This document shows, in pieces, positions 13,188 to 55,737 of a stretch of DNA of 64,000 nucleotides. Below the pieces are notes generated by a model. It made no database searches and was not told the DNA's origin. It worked only from the letters and a program-made list of their open reading frames with translations. Location: assembly GCA_963721015.1 (NCBI GenBank), contig CAVRHM010000006.1, positions 141,399 through 205,398 of the forward strand. The letters run 5' to 3'. Position numbers and translations under genes: made by a program. Numbering within the stretch: position 1 is the first letter of the stretch; each line of letters begins with the position of its first letter. The stretch comes from an uncultured Chloroflexia bacterium. Lineage in GTDB: Bacteria; Chloroflexota; Limnocylindria; Limnocylindrales; CSP1-4.

Positions 13188-13240
13188 GGATCCCCTTGTC
13201 CGCCGGGTCGGAGCCGGTCGGCCGACATCCTACCCCGAGC

Positions 13241-14893
13241 GTGGTCCGACGCGGGCCGGCGCCGTTGACGGGGGACACCACGACCGAGGCCGACGCGCCT
13301 CGCCCGCTCCGGGTCGACATCGTCGTCGCCGGCCGCCACGGTCCGGCATGGGTCGCCGACGCCATCGCGGCCATCGATGCCGCCCCGCACGCCGTCCTCG
13401 GCGATCTCGTCGTCGAGCCCGGGCCCCCGTCGCCACTGCGCGGCGGCGCTCGGCGGCTCCTCGGCCTGTATGACCGCCTCGACCGGCGCCTGTTCGGACG
13501 GTCCGACGACCCGACACGGACGGTCGATCTCATCGCCGCGCACGCCCGGGCGGTGCGACCCCACCGTCCGCCGATCGGCGACGCGGATGTCCGCCTCCGG
13601 CTCGACGGCGTTCGCCCGACGGCGACGGCCGGCCCGATGCCGCGTCACGGCATCTGGACGATCGAGCACGGCCCGGGCCTCCCGCCCCGCGCGCGGTCGA
13701 ACGCCGCGGCGATGGCCCCGGGCGCGATGGAGCAGCTCCTGGGCTGGACGGCCATCGAGAGCCGCCTCGTCATCGACGCGGCTGACGGATCGCGCGTCGT
13801 CGACCGCGTCGTGAGTCGGGTCGACGCCCTGTCCGTCCAACGGGCAGCGCGCGGGCACCTCCCCAAGCTCGTCGGCCTGGTCGTCCGCGCCCTCGCAGCG
13901 GTGAGCACCACGAACCAGCTGCCCGCGCCGCGCGAGATGGAGCCGGTCGTCGGGCCAGGGGCGCGGTCCTCGACGACCGGCCTGGCCTTCGTCGCGCGCG
14001 GCCTCGTCAACGTCGTCGGCGGTTACCTCGCCCGTCTCGTCCGCCGTCGCCTGTCGCGTGAGCGCTGGATCGTCGCCATCGCCCGTGGTGCGGACGCGGA
14101 CCCGGACGCGCCGAGATCCGGCGTCCGACCCGGAGCGATGCGCACGTTGTCGGCGCCGGAAGGGCGAGAGTGGGCTGATCCGTTCCCGATCCGGACCGCG
14201 GATGGCGACCTCGTCTTCGTCGAGGAGTACGTCTGGGCGGACCGCCGTGGTCACCTGGCCGTCGTCACGCTCGACGACAGCCCTCGCGGCTGGCAGGACG
14301 TGCGCACGATCCTGGACCTGCCGACCCACCTGTCGTATCCGTTCGTGTTCGAGTGGGAGGGACGCTGGTACCTGTTGCCGGAGCAGGCCAGTGCGGGCGG
14401 CCTCCAGCTCTACGTCGCGGATCGATTCCCGGACACGTGGACCTGGCACGCCGAGGTCCTCGACCATCCAGCGGCCGACGCGACGCTGGCCCGGATCGGC
14501 GACCGCTGGTGGATGTTCACCGCGCACGCGATCCCGGGCGGGACGGCCGCCGACGAGCTCCACGTGTACCACGCCACTTCGCCGTTCGGGCCGTGGACCG
14601 CCCACGTCGCGAACCCGGTCGTCTCCGACGTCCGGACGGCTCGCCCGGCCGGCCACTGCTTCGAACGGGACGGCACGTGGTACCGGGTGGCTCAGGACGG
14701 CGCGGCCACGTACGGCCATGCCATCGTCATCCTCCGGATCGATCACCTGGACCTCACCGACTACCGCGAGACGGTCGTCGAGGTCATCCGTCCGGACTGG
14801 GCGCCCGGCCTGACGGGGACCCACACCCTCAATCGCGTGGACGGGCTCGTCGTCGTCGACGGTCTGCTCAACCCGCCGATCCTCCGCCGCTGA
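13241..14893 (+). CDS. GINT1-N-like (glucosamine inositolphosphorylceramide transferase N-terminal / GH43-like beta-propeller) protein, copy 1; start uncertain (13196-13265)
   Basis: WADPFP, FVEEY, HLSYPFVF, WYLLPE, GPWTAHVANPV, ARPAG, GTHTLN. Confidence 0.8.
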   Translation: MVRRGPAPLTGDTTTEADAPRPLRVDIVVAGRHGPAWVADAIAAIDAAPHAVLGDLVVEPGPPSPLRGGARRLLGLYDRLDRRLFGRSDDPTRTVDLIAAHARAVRPHRPPIGDADVRLRLDGVRPTATAGPMPRHGIWTIEHGPGLPPRARSNAAAMAPGAMEQLLGWTAIESRLVIDAADGSRVVDRVVSRVDALSVQRAARGHLPKLVGLVVRALAAVSTTNQLPAPREMEPVVGPGARSSTTGLAFVARGLVNVVGGYLARLVRRRLSRERWIVAIARGADADPDAPRSGVRPGAMRTLSAPEGREWADPFPIRTADGDLVFVEEYVWADRRGHLAVVTLDDSPRGWQDVRTILDLPTHLSYPFVFEWEGRWYLLPEQASAGGLQLYVADRFPDTWTWHAEVLDHPAADATLARIGDRWWMFTAHAIPGGTAADELHVYHATSPFGPWTAHVANPVVSDVRTARPAGHCFERDGTWYRVAQDGAATYGHAIVILRIDHLDLTDYRETVVEVIRPDWAPGLTGTHTLNRVDGLVVVDGLLNPPILRR

Positions 14894-15084
14894 CCTCGCG
14901 GTCGGTGCGTGCGCGCACCATGGCAGTCCGCACCAGAACGCCCCAGATGGCAACGGACCGGCCCGCGTTCGCCGGACCATCGACCCCGGGCGCCGCGACG
15001 CCAGCGGGACCATCTCCCCATGGCTTCCGCGCACCACGCAAGCCAGACTACCCGGCGGAGGTCGCTGGCCTGATCCGCGATCGA

Positions 15085-15163
15085 TCCACGAAATAGCACA
15101 CCCGTCGCGAGGCGGGGCCGCAAAGCCACGGGGCTCACGTAGTCAGCCGGGTTGCCGAATGGA
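15085..15163 (+). ncRNA. GEMM-I family cyclic-dinucleotide riboswitch, A20 variant (candidate c-AMP-GMP/3',3'-cGAMP, GEMM-Ib)
   Basis: CCACGAAATAGCACACCCGTC-GCGA-GGCGGGGCCGCAAAGCCACGG...CAGCCGGGTTGCCGAATGG; P2 with GNRA loop, GCAAAGCC junction, P3; Vc2-equivalent positions 20/47/92 are A15095/A15122/C15155. Confidence 0.88.
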
Positions 15164-15174
15164 GAAACGATCGG

Positions 15175-17347
15175 ATGACATTCTGGGACGGGACCCGCTG
15201 GGTCGACGAAGACGCTGTCCACCGCAACGCCACCGCCGCCCAAGCCTCCCGCCCGAAGGGGCGACGCCACCTCAAGGACATCCTGGCCACCGGGGTCATG
15301 ATCGTCGGCCTGGTCGCCCTCGTCCTGCCGAGCGTGTCCACGTCGGCGGCCGGACTGCCGTCGGGCAACCGCCTGCTGACGCGCTGGGACGAGTCCGGTT
15401 CGGTCAAGCGCTTCAACGAGTCGAGCCCGCGGATCGCCTATCGCGGCGATTGGAAGCAGGCCGACCACGAGGGCCACATGGGCGGCCACGTCCTGGCGAC
15501 CGACGCCCGCAAGGCCAAGGCCTCGTTGAAGTTCACCGGTTCGGCCGTGTCCTGGATCGGGCCGGTCGGGCCGACGCGCGGCAAGGCCAAGATCTACATC
15601 GACCACCGGTACGTGGCGACGGTCGACACCTACGCCGCCAAGTTCAAGCCGGCCCGTGTGCTGTTCACCAAGGAATGGCGAGCGGTCAAGCCGCACCGCA
15701 TCACGATCGTCACGAGTGCGACGAAGGGGCGCGAGACCGTCGCCCTGGATGCGTTCGTCGTCCGCACGTCGAAGGGCGAGGCGGCACGCTCCAGGCCCAA
15801 GCCCGACAAGCCGGACACCACGCCCCGGCCGGACAAGACGCCGGTCCCGGAGACCGACCCGTACTTCAAGCTGACCGAGGATATCGGCCCGGCCGGCACC
15901 AGGACGACGCTCAAGCTGACCGGCTTCGCCGGTGAGTCCAGCGGCGACTTCTCGTTCGATGGCGAGGTCGGCGCCTTCCCCGGCTACGAGACGCGCGCTG
16001 ACGGCACCGCCGAGGTGGACGTCACGATCCCCGAGGGCGCCGGCCCAGGCAAGCACGAGATCCGGGCCCACGACAGCAAGGGCAAGTCCCTGATCATGCG
16101 CATCTTCGAGGTCACCGCGCCGGATCCGACGGCGGCCCCGACCGCGGCGCCGACGGCTGCGCCGACCAAGGCGCCGACCCCGGCCCCGACCGCGGCACCG
16201 ACCGCTGCCCCCACGGCTCGCCCCGACCGCGGCCCCCACCTCGGCGCCGACGGCGGCCGCCCCCACGGTGGCCCCGACCTCGGCACCGACCGTCGCCCCG
16301 ACCCCATCGCCGACCCCACGGCCGACCGCGACCCCGTCGCCGACGCCGTCACCGACCCCTCGGCCGACCGCCACGCCGTCGCCGACCCCGGTCCCGACGC
16401 CCGTCCCGACACCCACGCCGACGGTCGCACCGACCCCGGCGCCGACGGTCGCGCCGACGCCCACGCCCACGCCGGTCCCGACCTCCGCGCCGGCCGGTTA
16501 TGCGGCCGTCTTCAGCGGCGACGCGACCGGCGCGACCGACGTCACGGCCGCGCTCCGGAGCTTCCTCCAGTCGCACAACGGGCAGCGCGTCGCGCTCGCC
16601 ACGAACGGCATCTACCGGGTGACCCAGCTGACCTTCACGGCCAGCAACCTGACCGTCGACTTCCGCGGGGCTCGCCTCCAGGCAGCCCAGGTCGGCGTCC
16701 ACGGCATCCTCAAGATCCGTTCCGGCTCGAACGTCACGCTCAACGATCCCTGGATCATCGGCACCGGCTATGTCTGGGGCGACTCGACCCAGTGGGAGCA
16801 CGGCATCCATGTGGATGGCGGCTCGAACATCACCCTCAACCACCCCATCACCCGGAACACGCGCGGTGACGGGATCCTGACGGGCTATGACCCGGGCCTG
16901 ACGTCGACCCCGACCGGTGTCGTCATCAACAACCCCGACATCGAGCGCGCCGCGCGCAACGGCATCGCGCCGGTAGCCGGCCAGGTGACCATCCGCGGCG
17001 GCCGGATCGCCTACGCCGGCCTGCACGGCATCGACTTCGAACCGAACGATGCGACGGAGGCCGGCAGCATCCGGGCCATCGTCGACGGCGTCGATATCCG
17101 CAAGGCCGGCAACCTCCCGGCCGTCGGTTACCCCGGATACGCCATCTCGGCTGGCTGGGGCTACATGGCCACGAAGAAGCCGTCCCTCGTGTTCGAGAAC
17201 AACACCGGTGACATCCTGAGCATCGTGGTCATGGCCACGAACAGCGTCACCATCCGGAACAACACGTCGGACACGTCGACCTTCGCCGACATCACGACGA
17301 CGACGAGCGTGACCTTCAGCGGCAATACCCGCATCACCCGCCAGTAG
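15175..17347 (+). CDS. large exported multidomain protein: TM/signal, carbohydrate-binding-like domain, Ig-like domain, Pro/Thr linker, right-handed beta-helix; apparent frameshift in the linker (about 16215-16265)
   Basis: ORF 15175..16869 N-half (YRGDW...[24 protein letters not shown]) joins ORF 16268..17347 ([28 protein letters not shown]). Confidence 0.8.
16120..16490 (+). repeat. Pro/Thr/Ala coding repeats ([12 protein letters not shown] linker)
   Basis: tandem CCGAC-rich short units translating to a low-complexity linker. Confidence 0.85.
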
Positions 17348-17397: not shown

Positions 17398-19017
17398 ATG
17401 AGCGACCGTCGACCAAGAGCTCGGACCCGGGTCGCCCTGCGGATCGCCGCCGGCCCGGGTCCGGCGTTCCTGGCGGCCGCCGCCGACGCCGTACGGGGCT
17501 CGCCCCACGCGGACGTGGTGCTCATCCTCGTTGCGCCACCATCGGCTCGTCCCCTGACGGGTCGGGGCCGTGTCGTGGCCGCTGCCGAGGCGGCATTCGC
17601 GGCGCTCGAGCGAGCCGTCCTGCGCGGCGGGCCACCCGCCCTCGCCCCGGTAGGACCCGCGACGTGGCCGCCCGACATCCCGGTCGTGACCGCCCGGGAA
17701 GCGGATCGCCGCGCCGACGCGCTGCTCGCGGCGCGGGCGGACGTCGTCATCGACCTCGTCCCGGAGGATGACCGGGAGGCGCTACCCGTGCCTGCCGGTG
17801 GCTGGTGGCGACTCCGGTACCGGACGGGGAGTGACCCGCGCGACAGCGCGACCCTGCCGCGGCCCGCCGCGACGACCGATCTGGCCGTGTCCATGCTCAG
17901 CATCGGCCTGCCCGGTGACGTCGTCCACGAGACGGAGGTCGGCACGCATGCGCTCCACCGGATCGGGTTCGGCCGGGATCGCGACGCGGCCTATTGGCGA
18001 TCCGCACGCCTCCCGGCCCGGCGGCTCGCCCGGGCCGCGCCCGTGGCGGCAGCCAAGCCCGAGGCCGAGGCCGAGGCAAGGTCATCGCCGCCGCGCACCG
18101 TCGGACGCCGCCGGACGCCCGTGCCGCCGATCGTCGGGCTGGCCCGGGCGGTGCTGGCACGGGTCGTCGGGCGCGCGCTGTACCGGAGCGGCTGGGTCGT
18201 GTTGGTCCGCAGACGCCAGCCCGATGACGCGCCACCCGCGGACCTGTCCGGCTTCCAGGTCGTGCCCAGCCCCCGCGGGCGGTTCTACGCCGACCCGTTC
18301 GTGGTGGCCGCGCCGGATGGCCCACGGCTCCTGGTCGAGGATTGTCCGGATGGCCGCCACGAAGGGCGGATCAGCCAACTGCGCCACGACGCCGGACGCT
18401 GGCGCTTCGACCGCGTGCTGCTCGAGGACACCGCGCACCGAGCCTATCCCCATGCCATCGCCACCGCGGCCGGCCTCGTCGTGACCGCGGACAGCGGGCG
18501 CGCCGGCGGTGTGGACGTCTTCCTTCGGCCGGATCCGGCGTCCGGCCTGACACGGATCGGCCGAGCCCTCGAAGGACTGCCGGTGTCCGATCCGACCCTC
18601 CTCGTCCACGACGGGCGGTTCTGGCTCTTCGTCGCCCTGACCGAGCACGGCATGAGCCCATGGGACGAGCTGCATGTGTTCGTCTCCGCCACCTTGGAGG
18701 GCCCATGGCATACTCATCCGCGTAACCCGGTCGTCGCCGACGTGCGTCGTGCCCGACCGGCCGGCCGGATCTTCCGACGTGGGGACGCATGGATCCGGCC
18801 CGGCCAGGATTGCTCGGACGTCTATGGACGGCGGATCGTCCTCTCCGAGATCCTCGTGCTCACTCCGGACGACTACAGGGAACGACCCATCGCGACCATC
18901 GAACCGGCGGGCCTCGCCGACATGCAACGGACCCACACGTACACGTTCGACGGGACCACTGAAGCGCTCGATGCCTATCGGCGGGTCCCGCGATACCCAC
19001 GCCCGGGATCGCGATGA
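17398..19017 (+). CDS. GINT1-N-like beta-propeller protein, copy 2
   Basis: FYADPF, HRAYPH, SDPTL, ELHVF, GPWHTHPRNPV, ARPAG, QDCSDVYG, RTHT; paralog of 13241..14893. Confidence 0.8.
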   Translation: MSDRRPRARTRVALRIAAGPGPAFLAAAADAVRGSPHADVVLILVAPPSARPLTGRGRVVAAAEAAFAALERAVLRGGPPALAPVGPATWPPDIPVVTAREADRRADALLAARADVVIDLVPEDDREALPVPAGGWWRLRYRTGSDPRDSATLPRPAATTDLAVSMLSIGLPGDVVHETEVGTHALHRIGFGRDRDAAYWRSARLPARRLARAAPVAAAKPEAEAEARSSPPRTVGRRRTPVPPIVGLARAVLARVVGRALYRSGWVVLVRRRQPDDAPPADLSGFQVVPSPRGRFYADPFVVAAPDGPRLLVEDCPDGRHEGRISQLRHDAGRWRFDRVLLEDTAHRAYPHAIATAAGLVVTADSGRAGGVDVFLRPDPASGLTRIGRALEGLPVSDPTLLVHDGRFWLFVALTEHGMSPWDELHVFVSATLEGPWHTHPRNPVVADVRRARPAGRIFRRGDAWIRPGQDCSDVYGRRIVLSEILVLTPDDYRERPIATIEPAGLADMQRTHTYTFDGTTEALDAYRRVPRYPRPGSR

Positions 19018-20088
19018 GCGCCACCACGGAGGATCGCGAGCCCGTCAGGCGGGCGCTGGGACTCGGCGGGCGGGCCCTGATCGCGGTCACGGCCGTCCTG
19101 GGGTTCGCCTTGATCAGCCAGGTCCGCCTTGGACCGGGTCCGGACGAGCCCGGCACGACGACCCGGCCGGGCGGGGCCGCGGCCTCCGGCGACGTGACCG
19201 CAACGCCCGCCCCGACGCCGAAACCCGTCTACGCCGCGGTCTTCGATGGCGACGGCACGGGCGAGACGGATGTCACGGCGCAGCTCGAGCGATTCCTCGA
19301 ATCGCACGCCGGCGAGCACGTCGCGCTCGAGCCGGGCGCCACCTACCTGGTACGCGAGCTCGAGTTCACGGTCCGCGACCTGACCCTGGACTTCCGTGGT
19401 GCCCGGATCATCACCGACAAGCCGGGGTCGCTCGCCATCTTCCACCTGATCGACGGCGAGCGAGTCGTGCTCAATGACCCGACGGTCCACGGCACCGGAT
19501 TCACGTGGTCGGGCGGCGATGACAACCCGGAGCAGTGGGAAGCCGGGATCGAGATCAACGGGGGCTCGGAGGTGACGATCAACCGGCCGGTCACCCGGGA
19601 TACCCGGGGCGACGGGATCTACATCGGTTTCGAGGAGGGCACGAACCAGCCGGCCCGCGATGTCGTCATCGTGGAGCCGGACATCCAACGAGCCTCCCGG
19701 AACGGCATCTCGCCCGTCGCCGGCGAGGTCACCATCAGGGGCGGGTCGATCCAGGACGTCGGCCTGCACGGGATCGACTTCGAGCCGAACAATGACGTCG
19801 GTGCGCTGCAGCATCGTTGGCGTGGTGGACGGAGTCGATCTCCGCCGGGCCGGGGCGTTGGATGTCGCGGGCCTGACGGGCTATGCCATCGCGGCCGCCG
19901 GCTACTCGGTCGCGGACAAGCCGTCGCTGGTGCTCCAGAACGTGACCGGGGACCGTCTCGACATGCGCATCCACGACACGGCCGACCTGACGATCCGCGA
20001 CAACGTGTCTGACGAGGACGCCAGGGTCTACCTGGAGCGGGTCGAGTCCGTGGCCTTCGACGACAACGTCCGCGTCCGCCGGAATTAG
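19014..20088 (+). CDS. membrane-anchored right-handed beta-helix protein, apparent frameshift near 19805
   Basis: N-terminal TM; [42 protein letters not shown]; continues in ORF 19660..20088; paralog of the C-terminal domain of 15175..17347. Confidence 0.82.
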
Positions 20089-20117: not shown

Positions 20118-20409
20118 CCGACTGCATCGTCGCTGGGGCGGTACCCTGTAGCGAGACCCAAGCGGCATTTCGACGCGAAGTCCACCGGACCGAACCGGAC
20201 CGCACCAAGTGTGGTGCGGGGAGGCAACGTCGAATCCGTTTGATAACCCAGCGGTACTGGTAACGCTAGTACGACGGGCCTATCGTAGGGTCTGGACGCA
20301 ACCCTTCGCCGCTCATCCTTTATCCGAGGCGGGGGCCGGGCGTCATTCTCAGTGGGGGCACCGATCGAATGTCAGCGCAGATGGAACGCGCTCGTGGCGC
20401 GGCACGCCC

Positions 20410-21264
20410 ATGAGCAGCTCGCTAGCACCCAAGACCAGGACGCGTCCGGAGCGGCGCGCCCGCGGCAACCTGAGCCTGACCACCACGGACCGGCTGTATG
20501 ACTCGCGTTTGACGGCGCCGGCCCAGCCGTCGACGTTGGCCGATGCGTTCGGCCCGACCGTCGAATGGCGGCCCGTCGATGTGCCCGTCCCGAATGTCGG
20601 GCAGGAGATCATCCCGCGCCGACGCAACGAGATCGCGACTCGAGCCATCAACATTGTCTTGGCCGGCGTCGGCATGGTCGTCATCGCGCCGGTGTTCGCC
20701 GTCCTGGCCGCGGCCATCAAGCTCGATTCGCGTGGGCCGGTGCTGTACTCGCAGTCGCGGGTCGGCATCGATCGGCGCTGGCGCCGCATGTCGAGTACCC
20801 ACGAGGCACGGCGCGAGGATGCCGGTGGCCGGGTGTTCACGATCTACAAGCTGCGGACGATGCATGTCGACGCGGAGTCCACGCCAGACCAGGTGTGGGC
20901 GACGGAGGGCGACCCCCGAGTCACCCGGGTGGGGCGCGTCTTGCGCCGCTTCCGGATCGACGAGATCCCCCAGCTCTGGAACATCCTGCGCGGCGACATG
21001 AACATCGTCGGTCCCCGCCCGGAGCAGCCGACGATCGCGATGCGCCTCCGCGACGACATCCCGGAGTACCGACTGCGCCATCGGGTCAAGCCCGGCCTGA
21101 CCGGACTTGCCCAGATCAACCAGTCGTATGACACCACGCTCGACTCGGTCCGCTCGAAGGTCGCCTGGGACCTCCGCTACATCCGGGAGCAGAGCCTGCT
21201 CCTGGACCTGCGGGTCATGCTTCTGACGATCCCGGCGGTCCTGCTCAAGTTCCGGGGCTGGTAG
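20410..21264 (+). CDS. priming sugar transferase (polyprenyl-phosphate glycosylphosphotransferase, PF02397 type)
   Basis: IKLDSRGPVLYSQ, FTIYKLRTM, DPRVTRVG, DEIPQLWNILRGDMNIVGPRPE, VKPGLTGLAQ. Confidence 0.93.
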   Translation: MSSSLAPKTRTRPERRARGNLSLTTTDRLYDSRLTAPAQPSTLADAFGPTVEWRPVDVPVPNVGQEIIPRRRNEIATRAINIVLAGVGMVVIAPVFAVLAAAIKLDSRGPVLYSQSRVGIDRRWRRMSSTHEARREDAGGRVFTIYKLRTMHVDAESTPDQVWATEGDPRVTRVGRVLRRFRIDEIPQLWNILRGDMNIVGPRPEQPTIAMRLRDDIPEYRLRHRVKPGLTGLAQINQSYDTTLDSVRSKVAWDLRYIREQSLLLDLRVMLLTIPAVLLKFRGW

Positions 21265-33826: not shown

Positions 33827-33922
33827 GCTCCGGAGACGACAAAGGCAAACCCGGTGCGAGCCGGGGGCGCAAAGCCACGGGACTGGATCCTCGCTCCAGT
33901 CAGCCGGGCTGCCGTACGGAGC
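33827..33922 (+). ncRNA. c-di-GMP-I riboswitch (GEMM-I, canonical G20/A47/C92)
   Basis: ACGACAAAGGCAAACCCGGT-GCGA-GCCGGGGGCGCAAAGCCACGGGACTGGA...TCCAGTCAGCCGGGCTGCCGT; G33844/A33871/C33912. Confidence 0.93.
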
Positions 33923-33930
33923 GGATCGCC

Positions 33931-35721
33931 ATGGTCTCCTTCCTCCGCCGACGCACGTCGGCCATGGCCGAAGGAGCGCTCGTCGCCATCATCGTCGCGA
34001 TGTTGGCCGGCCCTGCCGGGCTGACCGCCTTCGCGATGGCCGGCAGGGGCGGCCCATCGGCCACGATCGAGTCGCTCGAGGGCGTCCTCACCGTCCGACA
34101 CGGCGACGACTTCGCGACGGGCCGGGTGGTGGGCCACGCCTATTCCCTGACCAACGCAGATGGCGAGACGCAGCTCGGCTTCCTTGGCGCTCCGCCGGAC
34201 GACGCCCTCGCCGGTTCGAGGATCCGTGTCCATGGCGCCGGGCGAGCCGGCGGCCGATTCTATGTCGCAGACGGCGGGACGACCCAACTCGCGAAGGCAG
34301 CGACGACCACCGCGTCGACGGGCGCCAAGAGCGTCGCGGTCGTGTTGCTGAACTTCTCGAACGACACCAGCGAGCCCTACACACCCTCCTTTGCAGCTGG
34401 TGTGGCGTTTACCGACACGAAGTCCGTCAGGGCGTATTACGCGGAGACCTCGTGGGGCCAGCTCACGGTCACCGGCGACGTCTTCGGTTGGTACACGCTT
34501 CCTGACACGAACGACGCCTGCGCCACCAGTAGCTGGGCCCAAGCGGCCACGACGGCGGCCACCGCAGCCGGCGCCGATCTGGATGCGTACGACAACGTCG
34601 TCTATGCCTTCCCGTACGTACCGAGTTGCCCCTGGTCAGGCCTCGCCAGCATGCCTGGCCGAGTGTCGTGGCTGAATGGGCCCGCGGCGATGTCGCTTCG
34701 GACGATGGCCCATGAGCTCGGACACAACTTCGGCACACATCACGCGAGCTCCCTGACCTGCACGGAGAGCGGGATCCGCGTCGCTCTGTCCGCCACGTGC
34801 GCTTCAACGGAATACGGCGACCCGTTCACCGTGATGGGAAGCGCGAGCCACTACCAGCAGACGAATTTCTCGCGCGGCAATTTCGGTTGGCTGAGCAGAT
34901 CGCAAACCCAAACCGTGACGGCATCGGGCGACTACATGCTGAGCCCGATCGAGCTCGACGATCCGAGCCTCGTGCAGGTCTTGAGGATCCCCCGGGGTGA
35001 TTCGGGTACCTACTTGACGCTGGAGTTCCGCCAAGCGTTCGGAACGCTCTTCGATACGTTCTCGTCGCTCGACCCGGTGACGAATGGTGTAACGGTCCGC
35101 CTGACCGCCGGCCAGACCGCGATGACGCAGACGCGGCTGATCGATACGACGTCTGCCACGTCGTCCTTCACCGATGCCCCGTTGGTCCCCGGCCGCACGC
35201 TGACGGATCCCGTCAGCGGCGTCTCCATCACGACGCTGACCGTATCGGCGTCTGGCGCCTCGGTTCACATCAGCTTCGACTCGCCTGCAACCCCCACACC
35301 CGCGCCGACGGCGAGCTCCGCGCCGACCCAAACGCCGGCACCGACGCCGAGCCCCGGCGCGACCGCCACACCGGCCCCAACACCGGCTCCGACGGCCACA
35401 CCCGCCCCAACACCGGCCCCGACGGCCAGGCCGACCCCGACTCCCGTGGCCGACACCGAACCTCCGACGACACCGGCGGCCCTCAAGGCCGCCCCCGGAA
35501 AGGGCAAGAAGGTTGCCCTGACATGGTCGGCGAGCTCGGACAATATCGCCGTCACCGGCTACGCGGTCTTCCGGGACGGCACGAGGATCGGCACCACATC
35601 GAAGACGGGCTTCACGGACGCGGTCCCTGGCAGGGCCGCGACGCACTCCTGGTTCGTCGTGGCGTATGACCGGGCGGACAACATGAGTCCGCCTTCCGAA
35701 TCCATCTCCGTCTCGCCCTAG
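33931..35721 (+). CDS. secreted M11 (gametolysin-like) zinc metalloprotease with Pro/Thr linker and C-terminal FN3 domain
   Basis: signal peptide; AHELGHNFGTHH, EYGDPFTVMG (Met-turn); PTPAPT linker; DTEPPTTP..LTWSASSDN..VTGY. Confidence 0.88.
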   Translation: MVSFLRRRTSAMAEGALVAIIVAMLAGPAGLTAFAMAGRGGPSATIESLEGVLTVRHGDDFATGRVVGHAYSLTNADGETQLGFLGAPPDDALAGSRIRVHGAGRAGGRFYVADGGTTQLAKAATTTASTGAKSVAVVLLNFSNDTSEPYTPSFAAGVAFTDTKSVRAYYAETSWGQLTVTGDVFGWYTLPDTNDACATSSWAQAATTAATAAGADLDAYDNVVYAFPYVPSCPWSGLASMPGRVSWLNGPAAMSLRTMAHELGHNFGTHHASSLTCTESGIRVALSATCASTEYGDPFTVMGSASHYQQTNFSRGNFGWLSRSQTQTVTASGDYMLSPIELDDPSLVQVLRIPRGDSGTYLTLEFRQAFGTLFDTFSSLDPVTNGVTVRLTAGQTAMTQTRLIDTTSATSSFTDAPLVPGRTLTDPVSGVSITTLTVSASGASVHISFDSPATPTPAPTASSAPTQTPAPTPSPGATATPAPTPAPTATPAPTPAPTARPTPTPVADTEPPTTPAALKAAPGKGKKVALTWSASSDNIAVTGYAVFRDGTRIGTTSKTGFTDAVPGRAATHSWFVVAYDRADNMSPPSESISVSP

Positions 35722-54069: not shown

Positions 54070-55737
54070 TCATGCCGGCATGGCCCGGAGGCGGTCGACC
54101 AGCCAGTCGCCGGACGTCGTCGCCAGGCGGGCCAGATCGACCGGTTCGGTCGTCGGCGTCTCCGATGGACGGCCGAGCAGGTAGCCCTGGCCGGCGCGGA
54201 TCCCGAGCGACCGGACGAACTCGAGCTGCTCCGGCGTCTCGACGCCCTCGGCGATGACCAGGGCGCCCCACCGGTCGGCCAGGTCCTTGAGCGTCCGGAC
54301 GACCTCCTGCGAGGTGGCCCGCACGGCGCCGCCCTGGACGAGCGACAGGTCGATCTTGACGATGTCGAAGCGCATCTGCGACAGCAGGCGGAGGCCGGCG
54401 TTGCCCGCCCCGACATCGTCCGCGGCCAGGCGCATCCCGGCGGCCCGGCAGGCCTCGACCGCCCGGACCAGGTGGTCCATGTCGTCGACCGTCTCGCGCT
54501 CCGTCAGCTCGAGCACGACCCGGGTCGGGTCGATGGCGTGGCGGCCGAGCATCTGGAGCAGCGCCTTGACGCTGAAATCGTCCGACTCGAGCGTGCGCGG
54601 GGAGATGTTGAGGGTCAGGCTGCCCGGCAGCCGGAGCGCCGCGAAGCTGGAGATCGCGGCGGACATGCAGGCGAGGTCCAGCTCGACGGTCCGGCCCACG
54701 CTCTCGGCCGCGGCGAACAACTCGCCCGGGTCGGCGAACCCGGACCCCGGCTGCGGACGGATAAGGCCCTCGTAGCCGCGCGGCTGGCCGTTCTGCAGAT
54801 CGAAGATCGGCTGGAAGACGGCCCGCAACGCCCCGGCCGCGGCGACCCGCTGGACCTCGGCCGCGACCTCGGCGATGGGCCGTTCCGTGGCGCTCGAGTG
54901 GCGCTCCGGGTCATAGGTCGTGATGCAGGTCCGGCCGTGGCGCTTGCCGAAGATGAGCGCGGCATCCGCCTCGCGGAACATCGCGGCGCGGTCCGTGGCC
55001 GCCCCGGGCAGGGCCGAGATGCCGGCCGTGAACGACCACGGCGTCCCGGGACCGGTCTGGGTCTCGCGAGCCAGGCCGGCTCGGCCTTCGAGGGCCGTCG
55101 CCAGGACGCGTCGCAGGGACAGGTAGCTCGACTCGCCGTCGGACCCGGGCATGAGCACGGCGAACTCGTCGCCACCGATCCGGAAGATCCGGTCCGAACG
55201 GCGCAGGCCGGCGGTCAACGTCGCCGCCACGCCGACCAGGACGCGGTCGCCACCGACATGGCCCTCGACCTCGTTGATCCGCCGGAAATCGTCGAGGTCG
55301 ACGATGGCCAGGGCCAGGCGTTGCTGGTAGCGCTTGGCGTAGATCCACTGGCGCTCGAACTCTTCCTGGAAGGCCCGGTGATTGCCCAGGCCGGTCAACG
55401 AGTCGCGCAGGGACTCGGCGCGGGCGCGGGCGTACGCGTCCTCGAGGATGACCCGCGCCTTGTCCAGTCGCTCCGCCGGCTCCAGGACCCGCCGGGCGAG
55501 CCACACGGTCAGGATGCCCAGGACGATGGCCAGGGCGACGATGGCGATGGCCGGCATCAGCACGCTCTCGCCGGATCGCGAGGCGAGGCTGTAGATGACC
55601 GGCGCCGCGATGGCGATCGGGATCGCGAACATCGTGATGAGGGCCAGGAACAGACGCAGCCGCACGATGCGAAGGTCCGTCGAGCCATCGAAGATGGCGT
55701 CGGTGTCCTCTCGCTCGTCGAACGCGGGCGTGCGCAA
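54070..55737 (-). CDS. membrane-bound GGDEF-EAL protein (c-di-GMP cyclase/phosphodiesterase)
   Basis: two TM; DSLTGLGN, DLDDF..IN...GH..GD, RxxD I-site, GGDEF; EGL, NIS, ELTE, DDVG, KID, EGVE, QGY. Confidence 0.93.
   Translation of the reverse strand: MRTPAFDEREDTDAIFDGSTDLRIVRLRLFLALITMFAIPIAIAAPVIYSLASRSGESVLMPAIAIVALAIVLGILTVWLARRVLEPAERLDKARVILEDAYARARAESLRDSLTGLGNHRAFQEEFERQWIYAKRYQQRLALAIVDLDDFRRINEVEGHVGGDRVLVGVAATLTAGLRRSDRIFRIGGDEFAVLMPGSDGESSYLSLRRVLATALEGRAGLARETQTGPGTPWSFTAGISALPGAATDRAAMFREADAALIFGKRHGRTCITTYDPERHSSATERPIAEVAAEVQRVAAAGALRAVFQPIFDLQNGQPRGYEGLIRPQPGSGFADPGELFAAAESVGRTVELDLACMSAAISSFAALRLPGSLTLNISPRTLESDDFSVKALLQMLGRHAIDPTRVVLELTERETVDDMDHLVRAVEACRAAGMRLAADDVGAGNAGLRLLSQMRFDIVKIDLSLVQGGAVRATSQEVVRTLKDLADRWGALVIAEGVETPEQLEFVRSLGIRAGQGYLLGRPSETPTTEPVDLARLATTSGDWLVDRLRAMPA

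Follow-up and report, generated by a model that had tools for sequence, protein, structure and literature searches.

An adenine at position 20 of a GEMM-I aptamer (A20, in the numbering of the Vibrio cholerae RNA Vc2) is widely treated as shorthand for a riboswitch recognizing 3',3'-cGAMP, and, to our knowledge, no other base is known to make the pocket accessible to this messenger. We take position 20 to be the reader of the α-base of the ligand, A47 to be its intercalating adenine and C92 to be the Watson-Crick partner of its guanine. According to biochemical work on such RNAs, binding to the Vc2 mutant G20A takes place at 53 nM for c-di-GMP and at 120 nM for cGAMP, the natural A20 RNA Cbe 1-2 of Clostridium beijerinckii prefers c-di-GMP (30 nM) to cGAMP (463 nM), and A20 is protonated in complexes with c-di-GMP (PMC6140456). 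The same work describes A20 RNAs as commonly bispecific in vitro, with P1 stability as the only pointer to what separates selective from bispecific members, for which sequence rules are not established (PMC6140456). Some A20 RNAs from Geobacter, such as Gs1761, display an approximately 1200-fold selectivity for cGAMP (PMC6456294), and Gs1761, a member of the GEMM-Ib group considered here, precedes pgcA (as described in PMC6140456, PMC6456294 and PMC8835794).

With this background, we have analysed a stretch of 64,000 nucleotides, hereafter termed the window, from an uncultured soil Chloroflexota bacterium. A preceding sequence-only reading had tentatively placed the organism outside the deltaproteobacteria, in agreement with its best named EF-Tu relatives, which are uncultured Chloroflexia MAGs (86%). 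Searching the whole window with cmscan against Rfam identified two cyclic-dinucleotide aptamers, the first of which contains the following features:

15085–15159, plus strand: GEMM-I (c-di-GMP-I) aptamer (RF01051) of the 'GCACA...CCGC' subtype with a J1/2 of 5 nt
15095, plus strand: A at position 20 in Vc2 numbering, from the RF01051 alignment
15122, plus strand: A equivalent to A47, invariant in 27/27 leaders
15155, plus strand: C equivalent to C92, invariant in 27/27 leaders

This aptamer matches the full RF01051 model (positions 1–87) with 58.5 bits and an E-value of 7.2e-9 at a gathering score of 35 bits, and the Infernal search hence bears out the complete GEMM-I fold with A20, A47 and C92 that the sequence-only reading had described. 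In the alignment, 15095 falls in the unpaired column immediately 5' of P2's initial GC pair, with G as the consensus base and A in this RNA, 15122 is the A after the closing GC and 15155 the first C past P3. The G expected at position 20 of the c-di-GMP-I class is thus absent, and A20 is found together with C92 as in GEMM-Ib, with 'position 20' serving as a label for the base abutting P2, as J1/2 contains 5 nt (AAAUA) compared to 6 in the consensus. Assignment to the c-di-GMP-I-GGC variant (RF03167) was rejected: the score of 56.3 bits falls below the gathering score of 59, and the RNA has an A where the variant's consensus has G in the position-47 column; the gap in J1/2 of that alignment is due to the shorter junction. 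The second aptamer of the window (33835–33917) scores 70.8 bits with RF03167 and 68 bits with RF01051 and carries G20 in the alignment, as had been stated. G20 is also found in a third aptamer of the same genome (G000:C7:199309-199383), which in total contains one A20 and two G20 aptamers.

The fold is strongly preserved among relatives. Over 27 homologous leaders, 94.9% of the 648 cells defined by 24 pairs are paired, compared to 23–47% in slid controls. Both sides have changed in four pairs, three of them in P3 (with AU replaced by GC at one P3 pair in 7 leaders), and 49 columns are invariant, with variation confined to position 20 and the loops. The unconstrained minimum free energy fold of 15060–15200 is a non-aptamer structure with z = 0.83 and was set aside as uninformative. 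Judged by its sequence, the segment 15085–15159 is a genuine riboswitch aptamer of the known c-di-GMP-I class. With the prototype Vc2 and the RF01051 family it shares the covariance-model fold, a P2 with a GNRA loop, P3, A47 and C92, its location in a 5' leader and a Shine-Dalgarno sequence directly after P1, whereas it differs by A20 in place of G20, a J1/2 of 5 instead of 6 nt and a P2 internal loop that reads ACA/(C or U)C where the family has AAA/AC. The ACA and AAA forms of this loop never mix in 83 aptamers of the genus.

Since the ligand assignment hinges on one base, its identity deserves attention. Public runs from three studies, one of these runs possibly being the source sample, yielded contigs that cover 15095 and show an A with no other letter reported (contig X1 record 3, 14999–15101, 0 differences; contig X6 record 25, 14900–15470, 3 differences, none of them at 15095; contig X4 record 17, 15092–15125, 0 differences). 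A pattern search across the genus recovered A20 in 23 of 131 genomes, namely the one investigated here and 22 others. Base 15095 is therefore no sequencing error. Although the assembly does contain errors of the indel type, a sequencing or assembly artefact at this position can, in light of the three studies and the identical A in 22 further genomes, be regarded as refuted for practical purposes.

To place A20 into context, we surveyed the 131 genomes of the genus, where 71 pattern matches were obtained, 60 of which are of the 'GCACA' type; of the latter, 25 contain A20 by hand count. Among the retrieved loci, position 20 is a G in all 32 aptamers of the 'GCAAA' type, compared to 28 G, 21 A and 2 C in 51 'GCACA' aptamers, and its lability is limited to the latter subtype. 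The leader class found in the window, with the Shine-Dalgarno sequence right after P1, shows 15 A, 10 G and 2 C (n = 27), and the same junction contexts are found with either base (GAACU-A/-G, GAAAG-A/-G, GAACG-A/-G and GAAAU-A/-G). In one genome (G099), an A copy and a G copy are located 1.6 kb apart. For orthologs, we relied on a search of the genus genomes; a related-loci search in genome contigs with the N-terminal 332 residues of the downstream protein matched 37 stretches, none of which was confirmed. Mapped onto the best gene tree of the downstream protein and its homologs (16 sequences), the A label requires 4 changes, at least 2 of which are forced by well-supported branches, and its clustering does not exceed that obtained by shuffling (as low in 129 of 500 shuffles). 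Conservation of A20 among orthologous leaders, as expected for GEMM-Ib, is thus not found in the 27 leaders and the 16-protein tree. Within a sub-lineage, A20 is stably inherited, as illustrated by 18 occurrences of the GAAAUA junction in 16 genomes, which could reflect selection for something besides affinity to c-di-GMP.

The sequence-only reading had proposed that the organism would employ cGAMP as a messenger separate from c-di-GMP, with a synthase encoded elsewhere in the genome since the only GGDEF domain of the window retains its aspartate. Latter detail was found as described:

54928–55410, minus strand: sole GGDEF domain of the window, reading GHVGGD

A search of the assembly for Hypr GGDEF domains or CD-NTases of the SMODS type turned up neither. 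All 14 readable GHxxG-x motifs of GGDEF domains in the genome carry Asp, and the Ser/Thr pattern typical of Hypr enzymes was found at 0 sites of the genome, compared to 13 for the Asp control pattern. SMODS cyclases gave 0 matches in the same assembly, which comprises 3.39 Mb, is 77% complete by markers and contains frame breaks, so that a synthase could be missing from it; a synthase of a novel kind would escape all signature searches used. In the cGAMP-specific HD-GYP phosphodiesterase, Rxx(Q/N) replaces Rxx(K/R) (bioRxiv 10.1101/600031), and no Q/N-type was detected among the two HD-GYP domains of the genome, which read RPYK and RPYR at what is, by our own mapping made without alignment to PmGH, this motif.

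Across the genus, Ser/Thr-type GGDEF domains are found in 1 of 131 genomes and in none of the 23 with A20, and the riboswitch of this subtype in the single positive genome carries G20. The Asp control pattern matched 11, 21, 12, 13 and 10 sites in five A20 genomes of 90–94% completeness. SMODS cyclases are present in 8 of 131 genomes, distributed between 2 of the 23 with A20 (one of them below cut-off) and 6 of the 108 others, while Asn-type GGDEF domains are found in 4 of 131, 2 of them among the 23, and with 2 of 23 in each case no association of A20 with either enzyme is demonstrable. The proposal of a separate cGAMP messenger consequently finds no support in these searches or in the variation of position 20 in homologous leaders.

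These results have to be weighed against the possibility that the RNA is a true 3',3'-cGAMP riboswitch akin to GEMM-Ib. In this case, cGAMP would be made by an unassembled synthase or one of an unrecognised kind, and species would toggle the downstream glycanase-like protein between c-di-GMP and cGAMP control by exchanging G and A. With Geobacter GEMM-Ib the aptamer shares the combination of A20 with C92, here accompanied by A47, the coexistence of A20 and G20 aptamers in one genome (as in our genome and in G099) and a surface or polysaccharide target, and the end of its junction, AAUA, corresponds to A11-A12-U13-A14 listed for the cGAMP complex of Gs1761 (PMC7288161). The incompleteness of the genome equally leaves room for this interpretation. 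Unlike in Geobacter, the organism is a Chloroflexota bacterium with no Hypr GGDEF partner detected, A20 varies in orthologous leaders, and the aptamer overlaps with the Shine-Dalgarno sequence instead of acting by terminators as in the Geobacter examples (PMC6456294). Position 20 flips with no tie to any enzyme signature, whether Ser/Thr GGDEF, SMODS or Q/N HD-GYP, and the C found in two leaders fits the known reader of neither messenger. We thus regard a true cGAMP riboswitch as unlikely. In the wider form of this idea, the genus would run a cGAMP channel with an unrecognised synthase, and G-to-A flips would repeatedly rewire one glycanase family between channels; although improbable, this would add a new phylum to those with cGAMP signalling and point to a synthase of a new class.

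Alternatively, the RNA might be a deliberately bispecific sensor of housekeeping c-di-GMP and of cGAMP released by a firing CBASS-type defence cyclase. The frequent bispecificity of A20 RNAs in vitro (PMC6140456) and the sporadic SMODS cyclases of the genus would suit such a role, for which our genome lacks a SMODS match, while SMODS and A20 are not coupled across genomes and we know of no reason for a glycanase to answer to phage defence. We consider this scenario to be highly doubtful.

[quoted passage not shown] The analogy concerns the naturally bispecific Cbe 1-2 and Vc2 G20A, which share the A20 pocket, in the case of Cbe 1-2 in an organism for which no Hypr-cGAMP pathway is described (PMC6140456), and by which binding of c-di-GMP at tens of nM would be expected; the short junction and the ACA loop of the window RNA are apparently absent in Cbe 1-2, as far as its description goes.

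The direction of regulation is suggested by the position of P1 ahead of the gene that follows:

15156–15164, plus strand: 3' strand of P1 (CG, AAU, GGA), pairing with 15085–15090 and running into the Shine-Dalgarno sequence GGAG
15175–17347, plus strand: predicted regulated gene, read in two frames as assembled
17398–19017, plus strand: GINT1_N/GH43-like protein
19014–20012, plus strand: open reading frame with no family assigned
20209–21264, plus strand: Bac_transf priming sugar transferase

The Shine-Dalgarno sequence GGAG (15161–15164) lies 11 nt ahead of the ATG at 15175. In the 27 leaders, the pairs G10-C84, C9-G85 and C7-G89 are found in 27, 25 and 26 cases, respectively, and the outer pairs C6-G90 and 5-91 in 20 and 13. 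Enforcing the aptamer lowers the mean unpaired probability of the Shine-Dalgarno sequence from 0.43 in the free ensemble to 0.29, leaving it less open in 23 of 27 leaders, more open in 3 and unchanged in 1. As P1 overlaps with the ribosome-binding site, the riboswitch is probably a translational OFF switch for a β-helix glycanase-like protein. Speaking against an OFF switch, the P1 helix is short, the letters of its CC/GG pairs are invariant with no covariation, and the thermodynamic shift is modest.

The downstream gene is read in frame 1 from 15175 to about 16230 and in frame 2 from about 16220 to 17347. Its product carries an N-terminal MTFWDGTRW motif common to the orthologs. A membrane anchor and a carbohydrate-binding-like domain come next, and a Pro/Thr linker then leads to a right-handed β-helix. 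Latter matches clusters resembling pectate lyases, GH55 and GH28 with a score of 0.97, with the best ten matches all belonging to one clan, whereas the Pfam family Beta_helix (E 3.6e-4) remains below cut-off and a PDB sequence search of this part returned nothing useful. For the N-terminal 332 residues, Pfam and PDB sequence searches gave no significant match and the lead in the Atlas scores only 0.76. The domains and neighbours support the exported glycan-active protein in a polysaccharide locus claimed by the sequence-only reading, in the form of an anchored protein of a predicted glycan-active type, which is possibly co-transcribed with the genes on the same strand between 17398 and 21264.

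The two frames could be taken as a sign that a decaying or functionless aptamer precedes a broken gene, with the A being a neutral change at a position that varies freely. Public contigs list no indel at the frame break near 16220, where their cover is thin over the Pro/Thr repeats. Such breaks are a general feature of this assembly and of its long-contig sister assemblies (the reading of several GGDEF genes is divided between frames, and the orthologs in genomes G119 and G016 break early) and therefore look like assembly indels. The homolog in G109 stays open for 656 residues through the Pro/Thr linker, although its last part seems out of frame by eye; Pfam assigned no family to this protein. 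Together with the 49 invariant columns and the 94.9% of paired cells, these observations make decay very improbable.

As a whole, the locus is likely best described as a c-di-GMP-responsive A20 switch that turns off an anchored glycanase-like protein. Its fold, the A and the inheritance of this base, the variability of position 20 and the negative searches for cGAMP synthase signatures are observations, whereas ligand, OFF direction and enzyme role are inferred from them. The aptamer would represent a Chloroflexota-specific GEMM-I subtype with an evolutionarily free reader of the first ligand base at position 20. Its pocket would bind c-di-GMP, presumably supplied by the many canonical Asp-type GGDEF cyclases of the genome, via a protonated adenine with an affinity below that of a G20 pocket, and might also accommodate 3',3'-cGAMP if this were ever present. 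The bound ligand would stabilise P1, and since its 3' strand holds the first bases of GGAG, high ligand concentrations should lower the translation of this membrane-anchored, modular protein in an exopolysaccharide cluster. In this organism, A20 would more likely tune the affinity for c-di-GMP. Outside Geobacter, cGAMP signalling is poorly predicted by A20 alone, because the base toggles between A, G and C while no known synthase signature tracks the changes. The survey also delineates a candidate c-di-GMP regulon in uncultured soil Chloroflexota, to which a secreted metalloprotease and a membrane peptide of 35 residues would belong besides the anchored proteins of the glycanase-like type.

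In the surroundings of the aptamer (14800–15300), a scan with the σ70 consensus identified no promoter-like site, and the only terminator-like site, on the minus strand within P2, was dismissed as an artefact of the hairpin. An alignment of five leaders revealed a further element:

15007–15030, plus strand: block GGGACCATC..CCATGG/CATTGC, partly conserved in four orthologous leaders

Its location upstream of the aptamer would make this block a possible, putative promoter region.

Searches with Rfam covariance models locate two cyclic-dinucleotide aptamers in the window, and a third in the same genome. Positions 20, 47 and 92 follow the numbering of the Vibrio cholerae Vc2 aptamer; G-numbers denote the 131 genomes of the genus and G000 the 8-contig assembly that contains the window.

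15085-15159, + strand: GEMM-I aptamer, covering the whole RF01051 model (58.5 bits, gathering score 35, E 7.2e-9)
15095, + strand: position 20, an A where the RF01051 consensus has the G abutting the first GC pair of P2
15122, + strand: A47, the A after the closing GC in the RF01051 alignment
15155, + strand: C92, the first C 3' of P3 in the RF01051 alignment
33835-33917, + strand: second GEMM-I aptamer with G20, A47 and C92, scoring best with the GGC-variant model
33931-35721, + strand: ORF behind the second aptamer, 596 aa, with M11/reprolysin-like metalloprotease matches (E 7e-9)
G000:C7:199309-199383 (1502-1576 of fetched locus L001): third GEMM-I aptamer, outside the window, also with G20

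The alignment bears out the complete GEMM-I fold with A20, A47 and C92 that the sequence-only reading had described, as well as the G20 it had assigned to the other GEMM of the window. The RNA at 15085-15159 belongs to a local subtype with an ACA/(C or U)C instead of an AAA/AC internal loop in P2, and its J1/2 junction counts five nucleotides compared to six. Due to this short junction, RF03167 places a gap in J1/2 and the score of 56.3 remains below the cut-off of 59. The second aptamer carries A, not G, at position 47 despite its best score with the GGC-variant model, and a Shine-Dalgarno (SD) sequence again follows immediately 3' of P1. The third lies ahead of only a 35-codon ORF (L001 1588-1695) encoding a small hydrophobic peptide (MTVRLSPRARLVAHAVMNLSLVLAVLLAAAANYQG); many genus genomes contain near-identical copies of this aptamer, with an SD and a start codon behind each.

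The A at 15095 is upheld by three studies whose public soil and rhizosphere runs, one of which may be the source sample, yielded contigs with no other letter at this base (record 3 of contig set X1, record 25 of X6 and record 17 of X4). When independently scanning all 131 genomes with an aptamer pattern allowing one mismatch, with bases counted by hand from the printed matches, we obtained 71 matches in 64 genomes. The GCACA subtype of the window accounts for 60 of these, with A at position 20 in 25, G in 33 and C in two, and the remaining 11, GCAAA sequences let in by the one mismatch, all have G. An A20 copy is present in 23 of the 131 genomes.

Published A20 RNAs differ in their ligand preference: the G20A mutant of Vc2 binds c-di-GMP at 53 nM and cGAMP at 120 nM, Cbe 1-2, an A20 RNA found in nature, prefers c-di-GMP (30 nM) to cGAMP (463 nM), and Gs1761 is selective (0.53 vs 660 nM, in-line probing) (PMC6140456). 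In the same source, N1-protonated A20 is used for c-di-GMP binding, part of the selectivity may be owed to P1 stability, and no sequence rule is given for telling selective from bispecific A20 RNAs (PMC6140456). A20 thus opens the pocket to cGAMP without shutting out c-di-GMP. Cbe 1-2 had already placed an A20 GEMM-I outside Geobacter, to which the equally A20-bearing, non-Geobacter RNA described here adds breadth, with 131 genomes compared and controls included. The RNA is probably a c-di-GMP-responsive A20 variant; occasional bispecific use of c-di-GMP and cGAMP, both of which are bound by the Vc2 mutant and by Cbe 1-2, we regard as very improbable.

The sequence-only reading had instead proposed a riboswitch for 3',3'-cGAMP whose synthase would be located elsewhere in the genome; none was found in our assembly, which is 77% complete by markers. 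The Pfam GGDEF model matches 21 stretches, some being pieces of one frame-broken domain, and all 14 readable GHxxG-x motifs (13 by regular expression and one, GGHEVGD, by eye) contain Asp at the PleD D344 position, which is changed to Ser in Hypr enzymes, the GGDEF proteins making cGAMP (PMC6456294, PMC7288161). SMODS (CD-NTase) has no match in this genome, and the Rxx(Q/N) motif described for cGAMP-specific HD-GYP enzymes (bioRxiv 10.1101/600031) was not found in its two HD-GYP domains, which read RPYK and RPYR according to our own mapping. These tests would be blind to a synthase of an unrecognised kind. Throughout the 131 genomes, a back-translated pattern (GHxxG, followed by Ser, Thr, Arg, Cys or Trp codons, and GG(D/E)EF) detected one Ser/Thr-type site, GHQAGS...GGDEF in G066. 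As a control, the Asp version of the pattern matches 13 sites in our genome and 11, 21, 12, 13 and 10 sites in five genomes of 90-94% completeness bearing A20, and the Ser/Thr negative is therefore not caused by an insensitive pattern. Asn-type sites occur in four of the 131 genomes, two of them among the 23 with A20, and by the same search none in our own. SMODS is found in eight of 131 genomes (seven above cut-off) and coincides with A20 in two of the eight, G127 and, with a match below cut-off, G014. A cGAMP riboswitch, which the A at position 20 would accommodate, is possible but disfavoured, and we consider it unlikely.

The G066 site (around 1501 of locus L103, G066:C15:18797-18901) reads NNTLGHQAGS...GGDEF and agrees with the published Hypr signature; the ACA-type riboswitch of this genome has G20. 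A domain of our genome resembling it (C6:345296-345736) reads GHQAGD. In the four GGDEF domains of loci L132-L135, from G044, G070, G091 and G125, the PleD D344 position is occupied by Asn (GHxxGN...GG(D/E)EF).

Among 83 distinct genus aptamers taken from fetched loci, the two sides of the P2 internal loop change together: 5' AAA is accompanied by 3' AC in 32 of 32 cases and ACA by CC or UC in 51 of 51. Position 20 is G in all 32 AAA aptamers and G in 28, A in 21 and C in two of the 51 ACA aptamers; only the ACA form combines the 5-nt junction with a variable position 20. The leader class of the window, where the SD directly follows P1 and the ORF starts with M-x-FW(D/N)G, contributes 15 A, 10 G and 2 C (27 members), and a second ACA class with longer leader 6 A and 18 G (24 members). 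Loops and position 20 aside, the aptamer is nearly frozen in the 27 leaders (49 invariant columns, 94.9% of 648 cells paired, compensatory AU/GC changes in P3), and either base is found in identical junction contexts (GAACU-A/G, GAAAG-A/G, GAACG-A/G, GAAAU-A/G). In 17 of 51 downstream regions, tblastn detects a protein homologous to the N-terminal domain of the ORF in the window. On a gene tree of 16 homologs with at least 100 aligned residues, the A label needs four changes, at least two of them forced by well-supported branches, and it clusters no tighter than under random shuffling of the labels (as low in 129 of 500 trials). Position 20 is therefore inherited stably in some sub-lineages, GAAAUA being seen 18 times in 16 genomes of the pattern scan, yet it has flipped repeatedly. 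G011 holds four GEMM-I aptamers inside 13 kb (G011:C8:107238-120577; L041, L047, L049, L051), three with A20 and an identical core, apparently ahead of paralogous genes, and in G099 an A20 and a G20 copy are 1.6 kb apart.

The region around the aptamer comprises the following elements:

281-nt intergenic gap with the aptamer, 3' of the GINT1_N/GH43-like gene 13196-14893
15007-15030: block GGGACCATC..CCATGG, about 60 nt 5' of the aptamer, recurring in four orthologous leaders
G15090-C15156 and C15089-G15157: inner pairs of P1
C15087-G15161, C15086-G15162 and U15085-A15163: outer pairs of P1, beyond an A/AAU internal loop
15175, + strand: start of the ORF behind the switch (MTFWDGTRW, then a membrane anchor, a carbohydrate-binding-like region and a Pro/Thr linker)

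The upstream block may be a promoter of non-consensus type. The 3' partners of the outer P1 pairs coincide with the beginning of the SD GGAG (15161-15164), 11 nt 5' of the ATG. In the order listed, the five P1 pairs are kept in 27, 25, 26, 20 and 13 of 27 leaders; as the CC/GG letters are almost constant, this reflects conservation and not covariation. With the aptamer enforced, the SD is on average less often unpaired (mean probability 0.29, compared to 0.43 without; down in 23 of 27 leaders, up in three, unchanged in one), and the leader has no space for a terminator. From the P1/SD overlap, the enforced folds and the lacking terminator space we therefore infer, with moderate confidence, a translational OFF switch: the ligand-stabilised aptamer would take up the SD in P1 and translation of the ORF at 15175 would fall. 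High c-di-GMP would then repress an anchored glycan-cleaving enzyme within an exopolysaccharide cluster, whose further members are a MurJ-like flippase, a GT4 glycosyltransferase, a second GINT1_N/GH43-like gene and a Bac_transf priming transferase. Such repression would be in line with the familiar pattern of setting matrix building against matrix remodelling.

Past residue ~350, the starting frame of the ORF yields low-complexity nonsense, and the adjacent frame carries on the linker and then a right-handed beta-helix to 17347 (Pfam Beta_helix, E 3.6e-4, below cut-off; Atlas features 0.97 to pectate-lyase-fold, GH55 and GH28-related clusters, the best ten all of one clan). We read the break (~16220) as a probable assembly indel; the public-run contigs cover the Pro/Thr repeats thinly and list no indel. 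Several GGDEF genes of our assembly are likewise divided between frames, the orthologs in the few-contig assemblies G119 and G016 lose the frame even earlier, and in G109 the homolog stays open over 656 aa and past the linker region, its last part by eye also appearing out of frame. Frame-split genes are numerous in G000 (for example C7:302597-303066, C6:620565-621030, C7:328646-329044 and ~16220 of the window) and in its few-contig sister assemblies, which suggests uncorrected indel errors that may lower the completeness estimate of 77%. Two 151-nt contigs of a soil metatranscriptome run align within the coding region, at 15266-15416 and at 15454-15604, each with a single difference, a weak hint at transcription, as such libraries can contain DNA. 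The nearest named records to the EF-Tu of our genome are uncultured Chloroflexia MAGs (86% and 79%) and Oscillochloris (77%).
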